IMG/VR virus record: IMGVR_UViG_3300045988_165663
Location: 1-36,691 of that record
DNA: 36,691 nt
Origin: a virus
Reading direction: 5' to 3' (one strand)
Shown: positions 1-36,691 of the stretch, one piece after another
How the letters are laid out: each line of letters starts with the position of its first letter
Numbering within the stretch: position 1 is the first letter of the stretch
Notes under the pieces: model-generated
The model's database searches: none
What the model saw: the letters and a program-made list of their open reading frames with translations, nothing else
What the model was told of the DNA's origin: nothing
Translations under genes and position numbers: made by a program

Positions 1-607
1 ACAGCACTTGAACTATTACCAGCCCTTTATAAGCATGATAGAAGCAAACACAGACGAGCCTTTAGCAGCGACCGCTTACAAATCATGGTGGGCTTTAGAT
101 GGTAACCCGCTTTTTGGAACCATCACAAGGCTATCAAATGCAGGGCTTACAGCACAAACGCCTAGCGGATATTTAGAGATAGGGGGGGCTACTCCAAATG
201 CAAAATATAACTTTAACGATTATCCGCGTGTAAAGAGAGCTATACAAGCCGGATATGCCAGCGAGTTTTTTACAAACAACAACGACGATACATTTAGCAT
301 TGTGGATTTAAGAGGGCGATTCTTTAGGATATGGAGTAACGGCGGGGATATTGATAGTGCTAGGACTTTTAACACATTGCAAGGCGATGCAATAAGGGAT
401 TTTAATATTACACAAGATGGCAATAATAGAGCCTTTAACTTTCCTAATGGAGGTAATTATTGGGTAGCACCAACCTCAAATGCATTTATCCTAGGTCAAA
501 TGTCAATTTACGGCAAACCTAGCAGAGCAGGGGTGCCAACAACAAGTGGTGCTAACGCAGAGAATAGACCTTATAACTTCAACATTCGAATGTTTATAAA
601 AGTTTGA
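1..607 (+). CDS. tail fibre / receptor-binding protein, C-terminal part (gene wraps the circular junction; N-terminal part is 36235..36572)
   Basis: ORF-track ORF 8..607 is the in-frame continuation of the ORF opening at ATG 36235 (36580-36235=345, divisible by 3). It is the last gene of the baseplate/tail operon. The sequence is Gly/Asn-rich and fibre-like. The combined product is about 314 aa. Confidence 0.55.
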   Translation, partial: QHLNYYQPFISMIEANTDEPLAATAYKSWWALDGNPLFGTITRLSNAGLTAQTPSGYLEIGGATPNAKYNFNDYPRVKRAIQAGYASEFFTNNNDDTFSIVDLRGRFFRIWSNGGDIDSARTFNTLQGDAIRDFNITQDGNNRAFNFPNGGNYWVAPTSNAFILGQMSIYGKPSRAGVPTTSGANAENRPYNFNIRMFIKV

Positions 608-2190: not shown

Positions 2191-2787
2191 ATGGAGTTAA
2201 TAGATACAAAAGTATTTGCATTAGATAAAGTAAAATTTGAAGTTAAAGTCAAGATGATTGACAATTATCCGTCTTTTCTAAGCCTTTGTGAGATAGCTAA
2301 AGCAGTGGATAATGATTTTAATGCAGACAATTACTTCAACCAAAAGGATTTTTTGGACTTCTTAAAGGACTTAGAAAAATTGGATTATCCAGCGTTTGAG
2401 TTTGAAAAGACGCCTTATAGCTTTAGAATATGGACTCATCCATTTGTATTTATAAAGACTTTGCACGATGCAGGGATAGAGACACAATACTTTTTAAAGA
2501 AACAATGGCTTATGAAAGCTATTTTGAACTTTAGATACCCATCGGCTAATAGCAACTATAAAGAGAATCTTTACGCTTTGGTAAATAGCCTTTTATCAAA
2601 TGCCAGTGAAATAGCATTGTTTGAGAGATTTAAGAAAGAAACCGAAACACATATAACATACAAGCAGGAAAGAATACACGACTTAACCTATGGCGCAATA
2701 CATACCTTTAAGAGCTTGGAGCTAGGATTAGAACTAGGCATTGAACTCTACAAAGAGAGCTTAAAAGGCAATATAGCATTATCCTGA
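2191..2787 (+). CDS. hypothetical protein (198 aa)
   Basis: Clean ORF with an AAAGGAG RBS and a variant promoter cassette upstream. No recognisable motif. Confidence 0.5.
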   Translation: MELIDTKVFALDKVKFEVKVKMIDNYPSFLSLCEIAKAVDNDFNADNYFNQKDFLDFLKDLEKLDYPAFEFEKTPYSFRIWTHPFVFIKTLHDAGIETQYFLKKQWLMKAILNFRYPSANSNYKENLYALVNSLLSNASEIALFERFKKETETHITYKQERIHDLTYGAIHTFKSLELGLELGIELYKESLKGNIALS

Positions 2788-2873
2788 TTTTGTAAAACAA
2801 GCTATTTTAAAAGAATTCGAACTATCCACTTTATGCGTGGGTAGCTTTGATAAAAGCATGTAAATTAAACTTA

Positions 2874-2882
2874 CCCCCCCCC
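2874..2882 (+). repeat. poly-C homopolymer (C9) in the promoter region upstream of the KilA-N gene
   Basis: ttaCCCCCCCCCttag read directly. Sits about 105 bp upstream of ATG 2988 in an extremely AT-rich intergenic region. Confidence 0.8.
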
Positions 2883-2987
2883 TTAGAAACATCAAAAAAA
2901 AGTAATTAAAAAAATTAAAATTTAAATAAACTTTTATAAAAGTTATTATAAAATTCTAATTTTAAACTTATATTTAAAGGGATAAGC

Positions 2988-3629
2988 ATGACTACTGAAG
3001 TTATAATGCAAAGAGAGCTATTGGGTGATTTTGTAAGCCAAAAAAGCAAAAGTGGATTTTTTAGTGCTACCGATTTATTTAGAGTTGGCAATAAATGGAG
3101 ATTAGCAAATGGGTTTGATTCTAAAACAATGCAAGATTATTTGCAGACAAAAAATGCAAAAGAGTTTATTGCAGAGCTAAAAACTAAAAACAACGGCGAA
3201 ACGCCTTTAATTAGCGGTAGGGGTAGGGGGCATCATAGCTGGGTGCATCCTCTTTTGTTTATAGATATGGCATTGTGGATTAATCCAAAGCTAAAGATTG
3301 AAGTATATGAGTGGCTTTTTGATAGCCTTTTACAATATAGAAACAACAGCGGGGATAGCTTTAAGAAAATGTGCGGGGCTTTACTTATAAGAGCAAACCA
3401 AACCGATTTTATAAAAAACATACAGAAGCTATGCAAACTCATACAAGTGGAGTGCGGGGTTAGTGATTGGAATAATGCAACACAAGAGCAACTAAGGTTA
3501 AGGGATAGAATCCACGAAAACATAGCCTTATTGGCAGATGTGCTAAACAATAACAAAGAAGCAATAAGGCTAGGAATCTACAAAGCAAAGAATAAAGACA
3601 ATAAAATAGACTATTCTCAAATGGTGTAG
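2988..3629 (+). CDS. KilA-N domain DNA-binding protein (anti-repressor/Bro-like)
   Basis: N-terminal FSATDLFRVGNKW...SWVHPLLFIDMALWINPKLKIEVYEW matches the KilA-N/APSES fold signature. Confidence 0.75.
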   Translation: MTTEVIMQRELLGDFVSQKSKSGFFSATDLFRVGNKWRLANGFDSKTMQDYLQTKNAKEFIAELKTKNNGETPLISGRGRGHHSWVHPLLFIDMALWINPKLKIEVYEWLFDSLLQYRNNSGDSFKKMCGALLIRANQTDFIKNIQKLCKLIQVECGVSDWNNATQEQLRLRDRIHENIALLADVLNNNKEAIRLGIYKAKNKDNKIDYSQMV

Positions 3630-3771
3630 CAAAATACTACGCAGGGGTAGAAAATGGGATGGCTATACATATTTAATATGTAGATGGTGCATGTTTAACA
3701 TGTATCCTTTGCAAGATTTAGTTTTCTTTAAGTAAATATTACATATAATTAAGCATTACTACATTCTAGTA

Positions 3772-3819
3772 AGCGGGTTCTACAAAGGCTTGCGAGTGCC
3801 TGCTACCAGCCCGCTTTTT
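3772..3819 (+). terminator. rho-independent terminator-like hairpin (AAGCGGG...CCCGCTT + TTTTT)
   Basis: GC-rich stem 3772..3778 / 3808..3814 followed by a T5 run, downstream of the KilA-N gene. The loop is long (about 30 nt) and contains an internal GGC/GCC stem. Confidence 0.45.
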
Positions 3820-3832
3820 AGAGTGTAGATTT

Positions 3833-4234
3833 ATGGTAGTGAAACTCGCAACTTCACTTACTACTACACTACTTCTTTTTACACGCGGAAAGATTTTTAC
3901 AATGTATAACTTAATTCAAAATACACTAGGAGATACTAGCTTTGTTATGCTAAACAAGGCAGTTATTAAGGAATTAGGATTGCACGAAGCAGTAGTGCTA
4001 GGCTTTTTTGCAGATAGATGGGCTTATTTTGAACACGCGGATTTTTACTACATGATACATCAAGTATCAAACGATACCGGCTTAAGTGAGAGAGAATGCA
4101 GAAACATTATCAGCAAGCTAGTAGATAAAGGCATTTTAGTTAAGACGGGGTTTAGAGGCGCGCCTCCTAAGCAATTTTACAATCTTAACAAAGATGCGCT
4201 TATTAAGTATGAGGGGGCTTGGCATGTTGAATAA
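3833..4234 (+). CDS. winged-helix protein paralogous to the N-terminal domain of the replication protein (alternative start ATG 3902)
   Basis: VIKELGLHEAVVLGFF...ISKLVDKGILVKTGF aligns with VAKRLGIVEAVLLHNI...LKQLVDDGWLIKDNF of the 4273 gene. Confidence 0.5.
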   Translation: MVVKLATSLTTTLLLFTRGKIFTMYNLIQNTLGDTSFVMLNKAVIKELGLHEAVVLGFFADRWAYFEHADFYYMIHQVSNDTGLSERECRNIISKLVDKGILVKTGFRGAPPKQFYNLNKDALIKYEGAWHVE

Positions 4235-6247: not shown

Positions 6248-6765
6248 TGGAATCTGGACAATTCTTTTTATCCGCGCTAGAAATAGAATCGCTGGTCTCT
6301 TATTTTTATAGATTGTTTGATAACAATAAAGACACGCAAGACTATATTTACACTTGCGAAAAGCCCGCTACAAAACAAGATGTAACGATAAGATTTAAAG
6401 ATGGCATCTTAAGCGTGTGGCTTAATGAGAATGGTAACCCCGCCTCTTTATTGTCAGAGTTTGATACAAAAGAGCTTATTTTAACAATACATGCCGGCGG
6501 GATAACCGATACATTAAGACAATCTATTTTCTCTCAATCTATAAGAGGGTGTATCGAACAAGCAATACTAAAGAAATATGGCTACAAGGTTTATTTTGCA
6601 AGGAATCAAGTCAAAAGACGCGATGTTGTATATTGCCAGTGTAGCATCTTGAACGATAAAGGTGGCTTTGTTATAAAGAAATTCAGAATCTATCCAACAT
6701 CCCCGCTTTACTTTAGGTTTGACTTAAAGAAACTCACTATAGAAAATTTACACGAAAACATATAA
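6247..6765 (+). CDS. hypothetical protein (172 aa)
   Basis: ATGA overlap with the DnaC-like gene (translationally coupled). No motif recognised. Confidence 0.5.
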   Translation: MESGQFFLSALEIESLVSYFYRLFDNNKDTQDYIYTCEKPATKQDVTIRFKDGILSVWLNENGNPASLLSEFDTKELILTIHAGGITDTLRQSIFSQSIRGCIEQAILKKYGYKVYFARNQVKRRDVVYCQCSILNDKGGFVIKKFRIYPTSPLYFRFDLKKLTIENLHENI

Positions 6766-6828
6766 TTAAATATTATTTAAGAATAAATAGTTATAATTAC
6801 ATCGCAATTAAATATAAAGGAGCTAAAA
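6766..6828 (+). promoter_or_regulatory. promoter/RBS cassette, near-consensus copy (TTAAGAATAAATAGTTATAATTACA; TATAAT 6792..6797)
   Basis: Almost identical over about 40 bp to the copy at 12068..12130. Confidence 0.55.
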
Positions 6829-7143
6829 ATGGAAATTTTAGAAAAAATTGCAGAAAAGGTAAATGGGAAGGTTTGGATTAAGCATGGCAAGCAAAGAATT
6901 TATTTTAAAACTGATAAATCCGCTAGCGCTTACCTTGATTATGAAGTCATGCCAAAAAGTGATAATGGTGCAGAAGCTTTAAACAATTCAAGTTTAAAGG
7001 TTTTTAGCGATTGTCAATCACAAAGCGTCGCTTGGAATGTAAATCGTGCCAAACAGATTAAATTTGAAATTATTAGAAAATTAAATGCGTTGCTTGGTTT
7101 GAATTTGGATTTGCCTAAAAAATGGCAAGAAGTTATTTTGTAA
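6829..7143 (+). CDS. hypothetical protein (104 aa)
   Basis: ORF with consensus cassette and RBS upstream. Confidence 0.5.
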   Translation: MEILEKIAEKVNGKVWIKHGKQRIYFKTDKSASAYLDYEVMPKSDNGAEALNNSSLKVFSDCQSQSVAWNVNRAKQIKFEIIRKLNALLGLNLDLPKKWQEVIL

Positions 7144-7530: not shown

Positions 7531-8319
7531 ATGGAAAAACTTAGTTTAACACAAGAGGATTACAGGGCTTATCCAGCATTAAGCACTAGCGATATTAAGC
7601 AAGTGCTAGATAATCCTTACAAGTTTAGAATCGGCTTTAAGACAGAGGAAACTCCAGCAATGAAGCTAGGTAGCTTGGTGCATACCCTTGTATTAGAGCC
7701 TTCAGAGTTTAATAAAACCTATGCAATAGCGCCCATCGCGGATAAACGCACAAAAGAGGGCAAATCAATATGGGCGGAGTTTTCAGAAGCAAATCAAGAC
7801 AAAATCATTATAGATTCTGCCATGTATGAAACCGCTAAAGGAATGCTACATAGCTTAAAAACAAGCGGGGTTTTTGAGAGATACTTTACACAAGGCGAGG
7901 CAGAGTCTAGCTACATAGGCGAGGCTTTAGGTGCAAAAATAAAGGTGCGTCCGGATTTCTTTAATCTTGAAAAAAACCTTATAGTGGATTTGAAATGCGT
8001 TAGTAATGCCAGTGCAAAGGGATTTCAAAGACTATGCGCTAACCTTAGATATTACATACAAGCCTATTTGTATATGAAAATCACGGGTGCTAAGCAGTTT
8101 ATCTTTGTGGCTATTGAAACCAAAGAACCTTACACAATAGGCATTTATGAGTTGGATTACATAGCCTTAGAATTAGCAGAAGCAGAGGTTAAAAAAGCCT
8201 TGCAGATAATAAGCGATATGGACGAGCTAGACAATATTATAAACGTGTATGGCTACCAGAGCATAGAGCCGGTTATGTTGGCACTCCCAAACTATGTTTT
8301 TTATGATAGCGAGGCATAA
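7531..8319 (+). CDS. PD-(D/E)XK family exonuclease (phage recombination exonuclease, YqaJ/Cas4-like fold)
   Basis: RPDFF...LIVDLKCV (D...D-x-K) motif plus a QAYLY segment. Located upstream of the annealase and SSB genes. Confidence 0.65.
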   Translation: MEKLSLTQEDYRAYPALSTSDIKQVLDNPYKFRIGFKTEETPAMKLGSLVHTLVLEPSEFNKTYAIAPIADKRTKEGKSIWAEFSEANQDKIIIDSAMYETAKGMLHSLKTSGVFERYFTQGEAESSYIGEALGAKIKVRPDFFNLEKNLIVDLKCVSNASAKGFQRLCANLRYYIQAYLYMKITGAKQFIFVAIETKEPYTIGIYELDYIALELAEAEVKKALQIISDMDELDNIINVYGYQSIEPVMLALPNYVFYDSEA

Positions 8320-9694: not shown

Positions 9695-9701
9695 GGGGGG
9701 G
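9695..9701 (+). repeat. poly-G (G7) forming the RBS of ssb
   Basis: TAAgtGGGGGGGtgctaaATG read directly. Confidence 0.7.
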
Positions 9702-9707
9702 TGCTAA

Positions 9708-10169
9708 ATGCTTAATAATCTATCAATCTTAGGACGCGTTACAAAACCGCTAGAATTAAGGTATTTGCAGAATGGAACAGCGGTGCTAAATTTCGATATA
9801 GCAAACTCTCTCAAGGTAAAAGATAGCGAGCCAGTTGTTACATATCTTAGGTGCGTGTGCTATGGTAGAGGTGCAGAGGTTATTAATCAGTTTGTAGGAA
9901 AAGGGGATAGAGTGCTTTTGCAAGGGGAGTTAAGGCAAAATAGCTACAAAGACTCTACTGGTGCTACAAAGACTTATCACTACTTGCAAGTGAATAATTT
10001 TGACTTTATAGAATTTAAGAACAAAAAACAAACACAAAATCCAGAAGCAACACAACAAGCACAAGGTAAGCAAGGGGAGAGCATTATGGGATATGTTAAA
10101 GATGCCATGAAACCAAAAACCCAGAAAACAATAGACTTTGAAATATCAGACGATGATATACCATTTTAA
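9708..10169 (+). CDS. ssb: single-stranded DNA-binding protein
   Basis: OB-fold N-terminus (LSILGRVTKPLELRYLQNGTAVLNFDIA), Gln/Gly-rich linker and acidic C-terminal tail DDDIPF. Confidence 0.9.
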   Translation: MLNNLSILGRVTKPLELRYLQNGTAVLNFDIANSLKVKDSEPVVTYLRCVCYGRGAEVINQFVGKGDRVLLQGELRQNSYKDSTGATKTYHYLQVNNFDFIEFKNKKQTQNPEATQQAQGKQGESIMGYVKDAMKPKTQKTIDFEISDDDIPF

Positions 10170-10438: not shown

Positions 10439-10442
10439 TGGC

Positions 10443-10682
10443 TTGAAATATATTCTTTTGCTTATGTGCGTGGTTGTGCTTGGTGGGTGCTTTAGTACTA
10501 AAGAGAGGGTAGTGTATATCCCCCAAAGATGCGATATAATCTACCCAGCTTATCCATTGCCTAGAGGCAATGCAGTAGAAAACCTTAAAGAGCTTGCTAT
10601 TTACACAGAGAAGCTAGAATGCTCCTTAGATTTTTGCATAAACGGCGAGAATCTTATACCAAATTGCAAGATTGAGAGGTAA
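10443..10682 (+). CDS. lipoprotein (TTG start; signal MKYILLLMCVVVLGGC, lipobox LGG-C)
   Basis: In-frame TTG 10443 lies 8 nt after AAGGA. Classic lipoprotein signal peptide with four further Cys. Candidate o-spanin or superinfection-exclusion lipoprotein. Confidence 0.45.
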   Translation: MKYILLLMCVVVLGGCFSTKERVVYIPQRCDIIYPAYPLPRGNAVENLKELAIYTEKLECSLDFCINGENLIPNCKIER

Positions 10683-10692
10683 AGGGTTGTTA

Positions 10693-10854
10693 ATGCTTAA
10701 GCGAATGTTTTTTTATTTCAGATGGTTTTTAATTGGCAAAAATCATTGCATGGTTAGCGATGAAATGAAGTGCTTGTTTTGGGTGTTTCACAAGACTCTT
10801 TGGTGTGCGATTAGTTTTTCTTTGTGTTTTACTTTCTACATGATTTTTTTATAA
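10693..10854 (+). CDS. small aromatic/hydrophobic protein (possible membrane peptide)
   Basis: ORF-track ORF 10672..10854, trimmed to ATG 10693 (MLKRMFFYFRWFLIG...). Weak call. Confidence 0.25.
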   Translation: MLKRMFFYFRWFLIGKNHCMVSDEMKCLFWVFHKTLWCAISFSLCFTFYMIFL

Positions 10855-10864
10855 GTTTCTAGGA

Positions 10865-10873
10865 GGGGGGGGG
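10865..10873 (+). repeat. poly-G (G9) forming the RBS of the 10880 membrane-protein gene
   Basis: aggaGGGGGGGGGtgtgtaTTG read directly. The TTG start lies 6 nt downstream. Confidence 0.8.
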
Positions 10874-10879
10874 TGTGTA

Positions 10880-11688: not shown

Positions 11689-12072
11689 TTGAGAGGTTTT
11701 AATAAGTTTAGAAACATAAAGATAAATAATGCCACTTTTGGCAAATTCGATTCTACATTGGAATACAACACTTTTTTGTATCTCCTAGCACTACAACAAC
11801 ACGGGAAAATATCAGAGTTAAAAAGACAAGTAGCAATCGATTTAACTCCGCTAAAGCAAAAGCATAAGGTTAAGTATGTATGCGATTTTCTCTATAAAGA
11901 CAAGGAACGCGGGTTAATTATTGCAGACGCTAAAGGTATGTTAAGGCCAGAGTATAGAGTTAAGAGAGAGTGGTTGTTATACCAGTTTAAGGGATTTGTT
12001 TTTATTGAATTCTACAAAGAGAAAATAAAAGAGTATCTGCCATCAGGGAGTATTGATATTTTTAGTAATTAA
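11689..12072 (+). CDS. DUF1064-like phage protein (predicted restriction-endonuclease-like fold)
   Basis: FDSTLEYNTFLYLLALQQHGKISELKRQVAIDLTP...VKYVCDFLYKDKERGLIIADAKG matches the pattern recalled for DUF1064 phage proteins. TTG start with GGGGG RBS. Confidence 0.5.
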   Translation: MRGFNKFRNIKINNATFGKFDSTLEYNTFLYLLALQQHGKISELKRQVAIDLTPLKQKHKVKYVCDFLYKDKERGLIIADAKGMLRPEYRVKREWLLYQFKGFVFIEFYKEKIKEYLPSGSIDIFSN

Positions 12073-12130
12073 GTATTATTTAAGAATAAATAGTTATAAT
12101 TACAGCGTAAATTTAAATAAAGGAGCTAGA
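12068..12130 (+). promoter_or_regulatory. promoter/RBS cassette, near-consensus copy (TATAAT 12095..12100)
   Basis: TAATTAAGTATTATTTAAGAATAAATAGTTATAATTACAGCG...ATAAAGGAGCTAGAATG. Confidence 0.55.
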
Positions 12131-12874
12131 ATGAAAAGAGAGATAGAATATATCTATGGGGATAAAGACAATAATATACTAAGACAACGCGTTTCTAAGT
12201 TAGGCAATATAAGACACGGGCTTACGATATGTTATTACAATGCGAGAACCCCTTGCAATATAAGACACGGGCTTACGATATGTTATTACAATGTGAGAAC
12301 CCCTTATCGCAAGATTCTTTATAAGTTTGGCAAGAGGGTTGCAGAATTATTCTTGTTTGAGAATAGCAAAGGCGATATTGTAAAGTCTAAGACAAACTCT
12401 TTTTCTGAATTAGTCAAAGAGGGCAGAAAAACCATATTAAAGGAATGGCAAGCAACAAAAAGAGGGGTGTTTTTAAAATCTGAAGCAGAAATAAAGAATG
12501 GTGTTTTGCATGGCAAAAAAGTCGTTTATGATTCTGATGGCTGGGTTAGTCAAATTATGCAATATAGAGATGGTAAGCTTGAGGGCGCGTCTTATTCTTA
12601 CAACAAAGATGCTGATATTGTAACCGAGATAAATTATAAAAATGATGTTAGACACGGCGAGGCTTTTCTTGTTGGAAGCTCCATGTTTGGCGAGGGCGCG
12701 CTTACAAAAGGTGTGCGAGTTTTAAGCGATAAATCCACTAGTAATAAAGAGTTTGTAGCACTATATGAAAATGGCAATGTAATCGAGTTATATTTCTCTA
12801 GGTTTGGCATAAAAATAGCAAAGGTGCATGAGAATATGATTAGTGAAATCATATTGCACGGGGATTTACCATAA
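12131..12874 (+). CDS. MORN-repeat-containing protein, paralogue 4, with an in-frame 51-bp tandem duplication near the N-terminus
   Basis: Start chosen at ATG 12131 (RBS AAGGAG) rather than the track's 12053. C-terminal KNGVLHGKKVVYDSDGWVSQIMQYRDGKLEGASYSYNKDADIVTEINYKNDVRHGEAF MORN units. Duplication NIRHGLTICYYNARTPC / NIRHGLTICYYNVRTPY. Confidence 0.6.
   Translation: MKREIEYIYGDKDNNILRQRVSKLGNIRHGLTICYYNARTPCNIRHGLTICYYNVRTPYRKILYKFGKRVAELFLFENSKGDIVKSKTNSFSELVKEGRKTILKEWQATKRGVFLKSEAEIKNGVLHGKKVVYDSDGWVSQIMQYRDGKLEGASYSYNKDADIVTEINYKNDVRHGEAFLVGSSMFGEGALTKGVRVLSDKSTSNKEFVALYENGNVIELYFSRFGIKIAKVHENMISEIILHGDLP
12206..12307 (+). repeat. 51-bp direct tandem duplication (2 copies, 2 mismatches) inside the CDS
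   Basis: AATATAAGACACGGGCTTACGATATGTTATTACAATG(C/T)GAGAACCCCTT(GC/AT) at 12206..12256 and 12257..12307. Confidence 0.85.
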
Positions 12875-12882
12875 GGGGGGGG
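12875..12882 (+). repeat. poly-G (G8) between the stop at 12872..12874 and ATG 12885
   Basis: ccaTAAGGGGGGGGttATG read directly. Confidence 0.8.
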
Positions 12883-27889: not shown

Positions 27890-27901
27890 GGGGGGTAAAT
27901 C

Positions 27902-28348
27902 ATGGCAACGAATATAAGCACAAATAACGCGAGACTAACGATAATGATAGGGGCTATCCCGGTAGAGATAGAGGGCTTTAGTGCAGAGTCGGATATGTGG
28001 GTGCCAAATGGAACTATCCAGACGGCTGAAACATTAAAAACTGCAGACGGAGTTATGGTTGCTTATGGTAAAAATGCAGTTATCCGCTACACGCTTACTC
28101 TTAACGGTGGTAGCAAATCCGCTAGGATATTAAAGGAAGTGCTAAAACAACAAAGCAGAAATGGCGCTATCCCAGCCATACTTTTACCAGTAACGGCTAC
28201 TATGATTAACCCATCAGCGGGTATTAAAGAGATATATATAGATGGGACTTTAGAGGACGGCGATGTGGGTGCAAGGCATGGTAACCAGCATTTGCTAGAC
28301 CAATCATGGACTTTTGCTTTTGGAACAATGCAGACAATCTATACATAA
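27902..28348 (+). CDS. tail tube protein
   Basis: 148 aa directly after the sheath. RBS GGGGGG. Confidence 0.5.
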   Translation: MATNISTNNARLTIMIGAIPVEIEGFSAESDMWVPNGTIQTAETLKTADGVMVAYGKNAVIRYTLTLNGGSKSARILKEVLKQQSRNGAIPAILLPVTATMINPSAGIKEIYIDGTLEDGDVGARHGNQHLLDQSWTFAFGTMQTIYT

Positions 28349-31169: not shown

Positions 31170-32016
31170 GCGATGCTACAAGCTTACTCTAACAATAAAT
31201 GGTAAAACTAAAATTTACCAGGAATTAGCTACAAGCGATGTAAGCTTAAAAATTGAATTTGAAGTAACCGCTAGCGTTAATGGTGCGTTTAGCAATGGAA
31301 TAATTACCATCTTTGGATTAAAGCAAGAGGATACGGCCTTTTTAGCTACAAACTACAATCCCCAGACCTTGCAGTTAAAGGACTCTTTTGTGGAGCTAGA
31401 GGCCGGTTATCCGGAGCAAATGGCTATGATTCTAAGTGGCAATATATATGAGAGCGAGCCTAATTTTACAAGCGCAGACCAGAGCATACGCTTTAAGGTA
31501 ATGAGTGGAGTGCAAAATAACTTAAAAAAAGGTGCTAGCATAGCGGATAGCATCTCTAAAAATGCTACTTTTAAAGATATATGCGCTAAGGTTGCAAGCA
31601 ATAATAATCTAGCCTTAAAATATGATAATAAAATAACAAATAAGGTAATAGGTGATTTTGCATTTCAAGGGACTCCATACCAGCAAGTAATGAAGCTTAG
31701 AGAGCTTATGCCTTTAAGCGTAAATATTGCAATAAATAATAAAACACTTGAGGTAACCTATACAAACTCCAGCAGTGCTAAGAAAATGATTATTAGCGGG
31801 GATAGTGGTATGATAGGAACGCCTAAGCCTACCAGCACGGGTTGCATTGTTACTATTTTGCTTAATCCCATGCTAAGCATTAACACTTTTGTAGAAATTC
31901 AGTCAAAGAAACTCCCGCAATTAAATGAGTTGTATCGCATAATTGAAGTTAAGCATCGCGGGGGTAACAGAAGCGATAACTGGCATACAGAACTCACACT
32001 AACAAAGGCGCTTTAA
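31156..32016 (+). CDS. baseplate hub-like protein (Mu gpP / P2 gpD position)
   Basis: 286 aa. Call by position. Confidence 0.4.
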   Translation: MALFKRCYKLTLTINGKTKIYQELATSDVSLKIEFEVTASVNGAFSNGIITIFGLKQEDTAFLATNYNPQTLQLKDSFVELEAGYPEQMAMILSGNIYESEPNFTSADQSIRFKVMSGVQNNLKKGASIADSISKNATFKDICAKVASNNNLALKYDNKITNKVIGDFAFQGTPYQQVMKLRELMPLSVNIAINNKTLEVTYTNSSSAKKMIISGDSGMIGTPKPTSTGCIVTILLNPMLSINTFVEIQSKKLPQLNELYRIIEVKHRGGNRSDNWHTELTLTKAL

Positions 32017-34223: not shown

Positions 34224-34981
34224 TGTTTGAGAAGCTATATGATGATATTAGAATCCAGTCACAATACCAGAACACAAACATAGAAGCCTTGCTTAATGGC
34301 ATAAAAGAGATTAGGATTAATTTCATTGTAAAAGCATTGGAATCCGCTATAACTGAAGTTTTTAATTTTGAGACAATGAGTGGTGATGCTTTGGATATGT
34401 GGGGTCGGTTGCTAGATTTTTCGAGATATGTACCCATAAATATCGAGGACGCCGGCGCGTTTAAAAACTTTAGCTTTTACCAAAGTAATTTTCATTTAGC
34501 AAAATTCTTTGATAAAGAGGATATTAAATACGTAGAACTAACCGATGCATCTTATAGGCGAGTCTTGCAGTTGCTTTGGCGCGCTAGAAACACATCATCG
34601 ACTTTACGTAACAATAGCGAGCTAGCAAAACAAGCACTTGGAGTAGATATTGCTACAGGCGACTCGATGGATATGGAATTCATAACCTATTTTTTCAAAG
34701 AACAGATACCCGGTTGGTTAAAAAATATCCTATCTAAATACGATATATTACCCAGACCAGCGGGGGTTGGAAGCAATTATGTAAGCGCGTTTTATAGAAT
34801 CTTTGGCTTTAAGACAGACAGCGCGGATTATAATAGAGAGTATTTAGGCAACTTCTTTAATGCACAATTTGCCAGAGAGGGCATTGCAAAGCTAAATACT
34901 CCAGACGATAAAGAGGAGTTAGATAAACTTAAAGAAATCTTAGACCCTTTATTGCAAGGTGGAAGCAATGATAAGCAATGA
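34223..34981 (+). CDS. baseplate/tail protein I-like (Mu gp48 position)
   Basis: Position after J. ATGT overlap. Confidence 0.4.
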   Translation: MFEKLYDDIRIQSQYQNTNIEALLNGIKEIRINFIVKALESAITEVFNFETMSGDALDMWGRLLDFSRYVPINIEDAGAFKNFSFYQSNFHLAKFFDKEDIKYVELTDASYRRVLQLLWRARNTSSTLRNNSELAKQALGVDIATGDSMDMEFITYFFKEQIPGWLKNILSKYDILPRPAGVGSNYVSAFYRIFGFKTDSADYNREYLGNFFNAQFAREGIAKLNTPDDKEELDKLKEILDPLLQGGSNDKQ

Positions 34982-35372
34982 GAAAAAAGCAGAGGCTAAA
35001 AAGCTAATAGAAGCCTTAATTAAAAAGGTGGAATCCCATATCCAAAAGATAAAAGAAACTAAAGAATCCGAGCGCGTAAATCCTTTTGATAAATATCCAC
35101 TTGACGGCTACTTAAAAAAGGCAGAGAAGTTAAGAAACAATTACATCATGGCATACAAGCAAATAGACAAGCAAGACTCCGATTTTGACTTTAAAGCACT
35201 CTTTAAAAATGAGCTCAAAGAGCTACCAAAACCATACACTTGCCAGCAAGTAAAACAAATGGAGTTAGGCATTAAAGGAGTGCATAGGATTAAGCGGTTA
35301 GAAAAATACGATTTAGGCAGGCTTAATGTGGAATTCTTAGGGGGAAATAAGTTTGAGAAAGTGGAAGCTTAG
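34959..35372 (+). CDS. hypothetical protein (Lys/Glu-rich)
   Basis: ORF of 137 aa. Confidence 0.35.
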   Translation: MEAMISNEKKAEAKKLIEALIKKVESHIQKIKETKESERVNPFDKYPLDGYLKKAEKLRNNYIMAYKQIDKQDSDFDFKALFKNELKELPKPYTCQQVKQMELGIKGVHRIKRLEKYDLGRLNVEFLGGNKFEKVEA

Positions 35373-36234: not shown

Positions 36235-36691
36235 ATGCCTATAACTAACGCGCCTTTTTTTAAATACGCTTTTGCACAAAACGGGGATAAGACTCCTATA
36301 CCACAAGACCAAGACCCAAAAGGTAAAGTAAGCTATGAAGTAGGCTTTGGTGGTATTTACAGCAGAGACCCGTTAGCGGACGGGGATTATGTATTAAGAC
36401 CGGATTTTAACCAGCTAATGTTTGATACAACCAACGCTATAAGGCAAATGCAAATAAACGGCGCTAACCTTTGGAGAGCAGAGGTAGCAAATAATGGTGG
36501 CTATCCAGCCGGCGCGGTTGTTTTAGTAAAAATGCAAATGAACGGGGTTATCGATAGTGGTAGCGATTTTGTACAGCACTTGAACTATTACCAGCCCTTT
36601 ATAAGCATGATAGAAGCAAACACAGACGAGCCTTTAGCAGCGACCGCTTACAAATCATGGTGGGCTTTAGATGGTAACCCGCTTTTTGGAA
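36235..36691 (+). CDS. tail fibre / receptor-binding protein, N-terminal part (continues through the circular junction into 1..607)
   Basis: ATG 36235 with RBS AAAGGA. MPITNAPFFKYAFAQNGDKTPIPQ... The last 119 bp are identical to 1..119 and the frame is continuous with ORF 8..607. Confidence 0.55.
   Translation, partial: MPITNAPFFKYAFAQNGDKTPIPQDQDPKGKVSYEVGFGGIYSRDPLADGDYVLRPDFNQLMFDTTNAIRQMQINGANLWRAEVANNGGYPAGAVVLVKMQMNGVIDSGSDFVQHLNYYQPFISMIEANTDEPLAATAYKSWWALDGNPLFG
36573..36691 (+). repeat. 119-bp terminal direct repeat identical to 1..119 (circular-genome overlap)
   Basis: acagcacttgaactattaccagccctttataagcatgatagaagc... is present at both ends. Confidence 0.95.

Follow-up and report, generated by a model that had tools for sequence, protein, structure and literature searches.

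Does a run of nine cytosines lying a short distance upstream of the first early gene of a phage act as a switch on that gene? A true switch at this position would represent a rare phage use of a non-coding contingency locus to diversify the infection programme. The first-pass annotation took this view, proposing that changes in the length of the run, placed in the spacer of a KilA-N promoter, would phase-vary transcription and gate phage development. The data presented here argue that the C9 run is more likely something more ordinary than a switch: a hot spot of replication slippage that originated within a gene relic.

The DNA analysed, referred to as the window, is the complete 36,691-nt stretch of IMG/VR virus record IMGVR_UViG_3300045988_165663. 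Its ends share an exact 119-nt overlap (1..119 = 36573..36691), indicating a circular genome of 36,572 bp in which all plausible genes are on the plus strand. The gene order comprises tail/baseplate genes, small membrane proteins, DUF5675, a 198-aa ORF (no record was returned by an exact look-up of this protein), KilA-N and replication initiators, continuing with ERF, SSB, a holin-like protein, methyltransferase, terminase, portal and head/tail genes. No tRNA genes or Rfam families were found in the window or in the region of the tract. The host is most likely Campylobacter, since homologues of the KilA-N protein (73% identity) occur in C. coli and C. jejuni assemblies, on contigs of 35-37 kb, the portal has its nearest relatives in Campylobacter phages DA10, PC22 and PC11 and in Helicobacter prophages, and a 41-nt stretch (10708..10748) is 93% identical to Fletchervirus phages (CP8, CPX, F207, F336 and others). 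Some Fletchervirus records label this stretch a putative antiholin; in the window it lies within a 60-aa ORF (10672..10854), just 5' of the holin-like gene.

The features in and around the KilA-N upstream region are as follows.

2783..2821, plus strand: possible further piece of a Bro-N relic (PDFVKQAILKEFE against PAMVANAIKAEFE)
2817..2850, plus strand: 13-bp hairpin after ORF 2191..2787 (-14 kcal/mol, z=-4.0), without a U-run
2859..2894, plus strand: Bro-N gene relic, TGTAAATTAAACTTA-C9-TTAGAAACATCA
2874..2882, plus strand: C9 homopolymer, within the relic
2894..2901, plus strand: A8 run adjoining the relic, A6 to A9 among aligned relatives
2902..2987, plus strand: KilA-N regulatory block, starting 20 nt 3' of the tract
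2929..2944, plus strand: perfect 16-bp palindrome AACTTTTATAAAAGTT, abutting TATTAT/TAAAAT
2944..2949 and 2949..2954, plus strand: -10-like hexamers TATTAT and TAAAAT
2976..2981, plus strand: KilA-N ribosome-binding site, AAAGGG
2988..3629, plus strand: KilA-N gene, 213 codons, the first gene after the late/lysis block
3675..3731, plus strand: scar of a deleted Bro-N/ANT gene, 3' of KilA-N (29 nt, 93%, E=1e-6)
3765..3822, plus strand: intrinsic-terminator-like hairpin with U5 after KilA-N (-25.9 kcal/mol, z=-3.0)

The assignment of the downstream gene to KilA-N is borne out by Pfam PF04383, which scores 54.7 bits against a gathering cut-off of 23.8 (E=1e-14), and ATG 2988 is confirmed as its start, since this first ATG is conserved in relatives, distant ones included. 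The best PHROG of the protein is phrog_6095 (E=6e-31, full length), labelled 'amidase / lysis', and homologues in Vibrio phages go under the names KilA, transcriptional regulator or amidase; on phrog_6095, 'amidase' looks like annotation drift.

The C9 homopolymer lies exactly where it had been reported, with CCCCCCCCC read at 2874..2882 on the plus strand, and the 105 nt from the end of the run to ATG 2988 match the spacing of about 105 bp given previously. It is the sole run of at least six cytosines in the 36.7-kb window, in which a first-order Markov model predicts about 0.001 C-runs of nine or more. The intergenic region was described as more than 85% AT, which holds for the 105 nt 3' of the run (88%) but not for the whole 200 nt (2788..2987; 77%) or the 86 nt 5' of the run (72%). 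Homopolymers are error-prone, and a related Logan contig (L012) breaks 43 nt 5' of the gene, features that would fit a sequencing or assembly artefact. Contig L001 (ENA ERZ27229646), however, is an independent metagenome assembly, 99.85% identical to the window, that carries the same C9, G9, G8 and G7 runs, which excludes an assembly artefact; in addition, related tracts recur as C8 in three separate assemblies and as C7 in three runs of one series. An artefactual origin can thus be practically dismissed, and the C9 run is real.

C. jejuni lacks functional mismatch repair, and its G/C tracts undergo 1e-4 to 1.6e-3 indels per division, biased towards insertion at G8 and towards deletion at G11 or longer (PMC8355987); in strain NCTC 11168 every tract of 8 or more varies (PMC6321876). 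Promoter-spacer phase variation, known for instance from Neisseria porA/opc and H. influenzae hif, calls for a slip-capable homopolymer (at least 7-8 G/C) in a slippage-prone organism, and C9 is such a repeat by the length thresholds of these studies (PMC6321876 and PMC8355987) and with a Campylobacter-type host as the probable setting. As C9 would be replicated in a host without mismatch repair it should be unstable, and it is plausibly hypermutable within the phage population.

Relatives of the locus were reached solely through exact-protein look-ups of KilA-N variants (94-98% identity), which yielded eight more distinct upstream regions besides that shared by the window and L001. In all eight the approximately 86 nt preceding the ATG are nearly invariant. 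The alleles at the tract site are listed below.

TTA-C9-TTAG: window and L001
TTTACA-C8-TCCTAG: L017-19, from three separate samples
TTA-C7-TCAG: L020-22, from three runs of one series
C5 in three differing contexts: L013, L023 and L024/25
TTA-C4-TAG: L004/5
TTA-CCCACTC-AG (CCCAC): L014-16

A near-identical downstream flank accompanies the whole allelic series CCCAC/C4/C5/C7/C8/C9, and repeat number thus differs among related strains, as is characteristic of phase-variable loci. The C7-C9 cluster is consistent with the published insertion/deletion bias. Within a lineage the length is constant across contigs (C8, n=3, separate samples; C7, n=3; C9, n=2), and each contig group therefore displays a consensus length without rapid flipping. 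Either the tract could be steadier than supposed, or a particular length could be favoured. One close relative (n=1) derives from pig faeces. Source samples of the C4, C5, C7 and C8 relatives are SRR21357734, ERZ28436085, SRR14369257 and ERZ27250628. Neither a 29-mer from the conserved promoter block nor a gapped pattern of the tract had a match in GTDB genomes, IMG/VR or JGI metagenomes, and protein-pattern scans of the same collections for the KilA-N and holin-like proteins returned no relatives.

The distribution of sequence conservation places the run outside the strongly conserved stretch. Mean pairwise identity is 96% in the conserved block (86/87 nt before the ATG) and 87% at KilA-N third codon positions, compared with 76% in the segment containing the relic, the C-run and the A-run, which is below even the third codon positions. 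Judged by these identities, the C-run is a repeat of varying length in the part of the intergenic region that is under the weakest constraint.

The predicted promoter also lies entirely on the gene-proximal side of the tract. The sole plus-strand sigma-70-like site in 2600..3900 is TTTAAA-17-TATTAT at 2921..2949, and the -10-like hexamers able to serve KilA-N are all predicted at least 33 nt 3' of the run. The -10 element of KilA-N is probably at 2944..2954, with a predicted transcript start near 2956..2961; this would position the tract at approximately -74 to -87. Were the nearest alternative -10 (2916..2921) used instead, the tract would be at -46 to -54, still 5' of the -35 zone. With respect to these predicted sites, and to a conserved block that begins at 2902, the C-run neither separates -35 and -10 elements nor overlaps the core promoter. 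It is not a spacer tract, because the predicted promoter elements are all 3' of the run. Thus, a genuine simple-sequence repeat of polymorphic length in a Campylobacterota-type phage is upheld, but the promoter-spacer switch built on it in the first-pass annotation is not. The proposed gating of the developmental programme fares no better: integrase, recombinase and repressor domains were not recognised among the scanned ORFs, which are those other than some dozen structural ORFs at 21.1-25.8 kb, so a KilA-N switch would have no visible integrase or repressor as its substrate, and nothing points to the tract gating a developmental decision.

Other features of the upstream region agree with this promoter position. 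The distance from TATTAT/TAAAAT (2944..2954) to ATG 2988 is the same as that of AAATAGTTATAATTA-like elements, which elsewhere in the genome lie 25-36 nt 5' of start codons. In the C. coli contig L002 just 74 nt of intergenic DNA precede KilA-N, and in L002 and L006, which are more distant, a different perfect palindrome, ACCCTATAATTATAGGGT, surrounds TATAAT at the equivalent site. A palindrome at or beside the -10, differing in sequence with the architecture shared, is as expected for a candidate operator overlapping the promoter. Campylobacter promoters lack a clear -35 element, and upstream AT-rich DNA may matter. The hairpin described behind the preceding gene does exist, although it is longer than originally drawn (13 pairs, 2817..2850); terminator prediction did not call it, and it is partly conserved among relatives, being missing from L004 and L016. 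Further -10-like elements lie 25-36 nt ahead of the starts at 790, 5289, 9063 and 13114. A direct repeat of approximately 72 nt (6763..6835 and 12066..12137; 88% identical), whose copies run up to the start codons of two genes and hold AAATAGTTATAATTA and AAGGAGCTA, is probably a duplicated promoter/ribosome-binding-site module.

The flanks of the run point to its origin. The segment 2859..2894 is homologous to nt 202-234 of intact Bro-N/ANT genes in relatives, a stretch that encodes CKFNLYPLETS. Local alignment to the Bro-N gene of L024, evaluated against shuffles, gives z=7.3 for the window and z=9.2 for L004, and the Bro-N coordinates of the match are constant. In translation the window reads CKLNL-PPP-LET where the intact protein reads CKFNL-YP-LET. 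The similarity is collinear and without an intact frame, as in a gene remnant, and no ORF covers 2859..2894. The additional piece at 2783..2821 is weak alone (tblastn E=6.3) and is collinear with a match at 2835..2891. On these alignments the C-run derives by expansion from the CCC of the TAC-CCT codons in the Bro-N relic. The relic, adjacent to the promoter block, is kept in every close relative found.

Remains of the same gene type occur on the other side of KilA-N. In relatives, Bro-N genes next to KilA-N are truncated and upstream in L017/18, and full-length Bro-N/ANT genes lie downstream in L004, L013, L024 and L025. At the downstream position in the window, the scar at 3675..3731 juxtaposes pieces of the start, the middle (CMFNMYPLQ) and the end of the gene, and precedes the KilA-N terminator. 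The KilA-N region is thus a recombination-prone antirepressor cassette containing many relics. It resembles Bro-N/KilA-N/ANT phage cassettes in that the KilA-N genes of relatives are flanked by Bro-N and Bro-N/ANT genes, relics of which are present in the window; it differs in that the Bro-N genes of the window have gone and fragments alone are left.

On balance, the C9 run is probably a slippage by-product in the Bro-N relic, tolerated outside the constrained promoter. The CCC within the codons for '...NLYPLET...' in the decayed Bro-N fragment, which sits just 5' of the conserved early KilA-N promoter, grew into the C-run. Once it had reached 8-9 residues in a mismatch-repair-free, Campylobacter-type host, the run would gain and lose units often, and slippage in such a host may explain the C4/C5/C7/C8/C9 series among near relatives. 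Approximately 75-85 nt 5' of the predicted transcript start, the run occupies the least constrained intergenic stretch and, as it lies outside the constrained one, changes in its length would be tolerated. Its length would then provide at most a weak modulation of KilA-N transcription, with no ON/OFF switch. It should be noted that pure neutrality does not predict the retention of the relic, the length of nine shared by both relic-derived tracts (C9 and a G9 at the holin-like gene), or the complementarity to the holin leader described below.

Variation in the length of the C-run or A-run could alternatively alter the rotational or linear position of upstream DNA with respect to the core KilA-N promoter, grading transcription between lineages or within a population; we regard this as unlikely, albeit deserving of consideration. 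The DNA so moved could be the hairpin region, the left copy of the 9-mer TTAAACTTA or a factor-binding site. The T-tract of H. pylori sabA is a repeat that acts in this manner at a distance from the promoter. Precedents are also provided by the TAAA repeat of N. meningitidis nadA (PMC2791445) and the T-repeat upstream of H. pylori HPnc4160/NikS (PMC8035401), repeats which, like C9, are located 5' of the -35 zone where they could alter promoter geometry. The C9 run is length-polymorphic, is predicted to lie 5' of the -35 zone, and is within approximately 200 bp of the gene start, the usual search zone for such repeats (PMC6321876). In addition, TTAAACTTA is found immediately left of the tract (2865..2873) and again at 2962..2970, near the ribosome-binding site, and CTTTGATAAAAG (2845..2856) is similar to the palindrome core. 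The nadA, NikS and sabA repeats, however, are flanked by defined factor-binding sites or promoter elements, whereas the upstream flank of C9 is not conserved. Thus, TTAAACTTA is changed to TTAGATTTA in L017 and to TTAAACTTG in L013, and is weakly above chance in the window (5 found compared with 1.9 expected; 4/100 shuffles reach 5), while the element at 2845..2856 is deleted in L014 and absent from L004 and L016. Repeats on the far side of the tract that could support phasing exist but vary among relatives. In different relatives 21-31 nt separate the left flank from the conserved block (counted by hand), a range that spans a full helical turn without a preferred phase, and conservation in the segment is below that of synonymous sites. 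Three other candidates were considered and rejected. The site of a putative second operator (2843..2858) is missing, through deletion or otherwise, from L014, L016 and L004. An intramolecular fold that would mask the ribosome-binding site by pairing CUUACCC with the KilA-N GGGAUAAG is present in the minimum-energy folds of several variants and is better than shuffles in L004 alone (z=-2.9); in the window z=+0.9 and the duplex is at background level (-8.0 against a mean of -8.5). A small minus-strand ORF that would use the G9 complement of the tract as ribosome-binding site loses its ATG in L017, L023 and L014 in the alignment.

The segment containing the tract has an inverted counterpart approximately 8 kb away, at the leader of the holin-like gene, which gives rise to two further explanations. 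The features concerned are as follows.

2873..2901, plus strand: IR-L, segment of the tract region matching the holin leader as an inverted copy
10844..10874, plus strand: IR-R, TTTTTTTATAAGTTTCTAGGA-G9-T, comprising the end of ORF 10672..10854 and the holin-like ribosome-binding site
10865..10873, plus strand: G9 run of the AGGA-G9 ribosome-binding site, equal in length to C9
10880..11176, plus strand: holin-like membrane protein gene with a TTG start, its leader being IR-R

The holin-like protein matches phrog_11878 (E=2e-20) and holin PHROGs (1e-6 to 8e-5). Both repeats are covered in the window; the long contigs L024 and L025 stop short of the holin region. The reverse complement of the L017 variant equals the holin leader of the window over 33 nt except for one G, and the match between IR-L and IR-R shows, on the basis of the aligned sequences, common descent of the two copies. 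Pattern matches to the IR core are unrelated, chance matches resembling ribosome-binding sites.

At the RNA level, a transcribed C9 with its flanks may pair with the G9 leader of the holin-like gene, block its translation and tune lysis timing, the RNA being supplied by late-operon read-through or a long KilA-N leader and pairing less strongly with the ssb, 12885 and 27902 genes. This model is improbable, despite an evident similarity to the H. pylori RepG RNA and the tlpB G-repeat (PMC8295292), also from Campylobacterota, where a C-rich single-stranded RNA is complementary to a variable G-run at a leader/ribosome-binding site. The C-rich segment does display extended complementarity to a G-repeat leader: the two elements are inverted copies, and the duplex between RNA 2860..2905 and the holin leader (-38.6 kcal/mol) is the best of 1822 plus-strand windows (mean -8.5, sd 4.0), the next-best duplexes being those with the ribosome-binding sites of ssb and gene 12885 (about -26 to -27). 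In this phage AAGGGGG-type ribosome-binding sites are the norm. Folding predictions for 2788..2900 leave the C-run unpaired, and read-through is plausible because all genes are on the plus strand and the upstream hairpin lacks a U-run. Unlike RepG, however, no discrete small RNA is evident, as neither a promoter nor a terminator bracketing the tract was predicted and no Rfam family matched it, and the predicted KilA-N transcript start is 3' of the tract. Homopolymers would be present on both partners, and the complementarity would stem from an inverted duplication; common descent explains it, and selection is not required. The copies in the window have drifted apart (TTAG compared with TCCTAG, and ACATC with ACTTAT), and pairing would be considerably poorer in relatives carrying CCCAC or C4. 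The extended version of the model is more doubtful still. In that version the C-run and the holin G9 form a matched, hypermutable complementary pair, the RNA masks the holin and, more weakly, other G-run ribosome-binding sites, and the two tract lengths stochastically tune lysis and late translation; if true, it would constitute a phage-borne, two-sided version of RepG/tlpB. At the DNA level, IR-L and IR-R could record an earlier inversion or gene conversion between oppositely oriented copies, or could now and then serve as sites of inversion driven by ERF and SSB, which we consider very unlikely. The inverted copies, of approximately 30 nt, are at both ends of an 8-kb early module, the phage encodes ERF and SSB, and the minus strand of 10796..10823 resembles Bro-N/ANT nt 454-483 (E=0.02), a hint of an inverted Bro-N relic. 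The early module, however, is in a single orientation relative to the late genes in every assembly found, the copies in the window are imperfect and their longest uninterrupted identity is the homopolymer itself. Inverted repeats are thus present, but, in contrast to invertible segments of the Hin/Gin/Cin type, no invertase, integrase or other recombinase domain was recognised among the scanned ORFs (again without the dozen or so at 21.1-25.8 kb). Of all the features, it is nevertheless only the inverted copy at the holin leader that could lead to novelty, which, if true, would be lysis control at the RNA level with variable homopolymers on both partners.

As a slippage by-product, the C9 run has much in common with the intergenic poly-G/C repeats of the Campylobacter phasome (PhasomeIt, PMC6321876; PMC8355987): it is a G/C run of 8 or more residues, belongs to an AT-rich genome of Campylobacter type, is less than 200 bp from the 5' end of a gene, and differs in length between related genomes. 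It departs from these repeats in lying in a phage pseudogene relic outside the core promoter, and is known here from sequence alone; furthermore, Campylobacter tracts are mostly inside reading frames, whereas C9 is non-coding. A similar distinction applies to phages. In Fletchervirus the polyG tracts are reportedly inside receptor-binding-protein genes, switching by frameshift. Campylobacter phages of this genus carry hypermutable polyG tracts (Sorensen et al. 2021, Cell Rep 35:109214, via PMC10877375), and the phage contingency loci of a preprint are described as frameshift loci (bioRxiv 10.1101/2025.10.21.683753). Such loci resemble C9 in being slippage-prone phage homopolymers, with Fletchervirus sharing the host genus, and differ in their reported action by frameshift, where C9 is non-coding. 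The locus also provides a caution, in that a long G/C run close to a gene start can emerge and endure with no regulatory role in genomes shaped by mismatch-repair-free hosts.

Other homopolymers in the window are G-runs. The G7 at 9695..9701 ends 6 nt before the start at 9708, in agreement with its assignment as the ssb ribosome-binding site. The G6 at 27890..27895 likewise ends 6 nt before a start, at 27902, although its designation as the tail-tube ribosome-binding site rests on a presumed product: the protein matches a PHROG 'virion structural protein' family alone, and its L024 counterpart by gene order carries Pfam E217_Gp32. Two longer plus-strand G-runs were absent from the first-pass annotation, the G9 at 10865..10873 and a G8 at 12875..12882. 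The latter, directly behind the stop of ORF 12053..12874 and 2 nt before ATG 12885 (a 57-aa ORF), is a second long, potentially slippage-prone ribosome-binding-site run. ORF 12053..12874 contains MORN repeats and a 51-nt tandem duplication at 12204..12305 (17 aa, NIRHGLTICYYNxRTPx). A further G7, at 182..188, is in frame in the tail-fibre-like ORF 8..607, which encodes the C-terminal portion of a 314-aa protein spanning the window ends, and is a candidate for frameshift phase variation of a host-recognition protein, the mode of action reported for the Fletchervirus polyG tracts. Finally, the window and L001 differ by 27 substitutions and 4 gap columns, nearly all in 7820..8085, 10439..10514 and 34486..35078, with one apart at 31936, a clustering that suggests recombination tracts and not scattered mutation.
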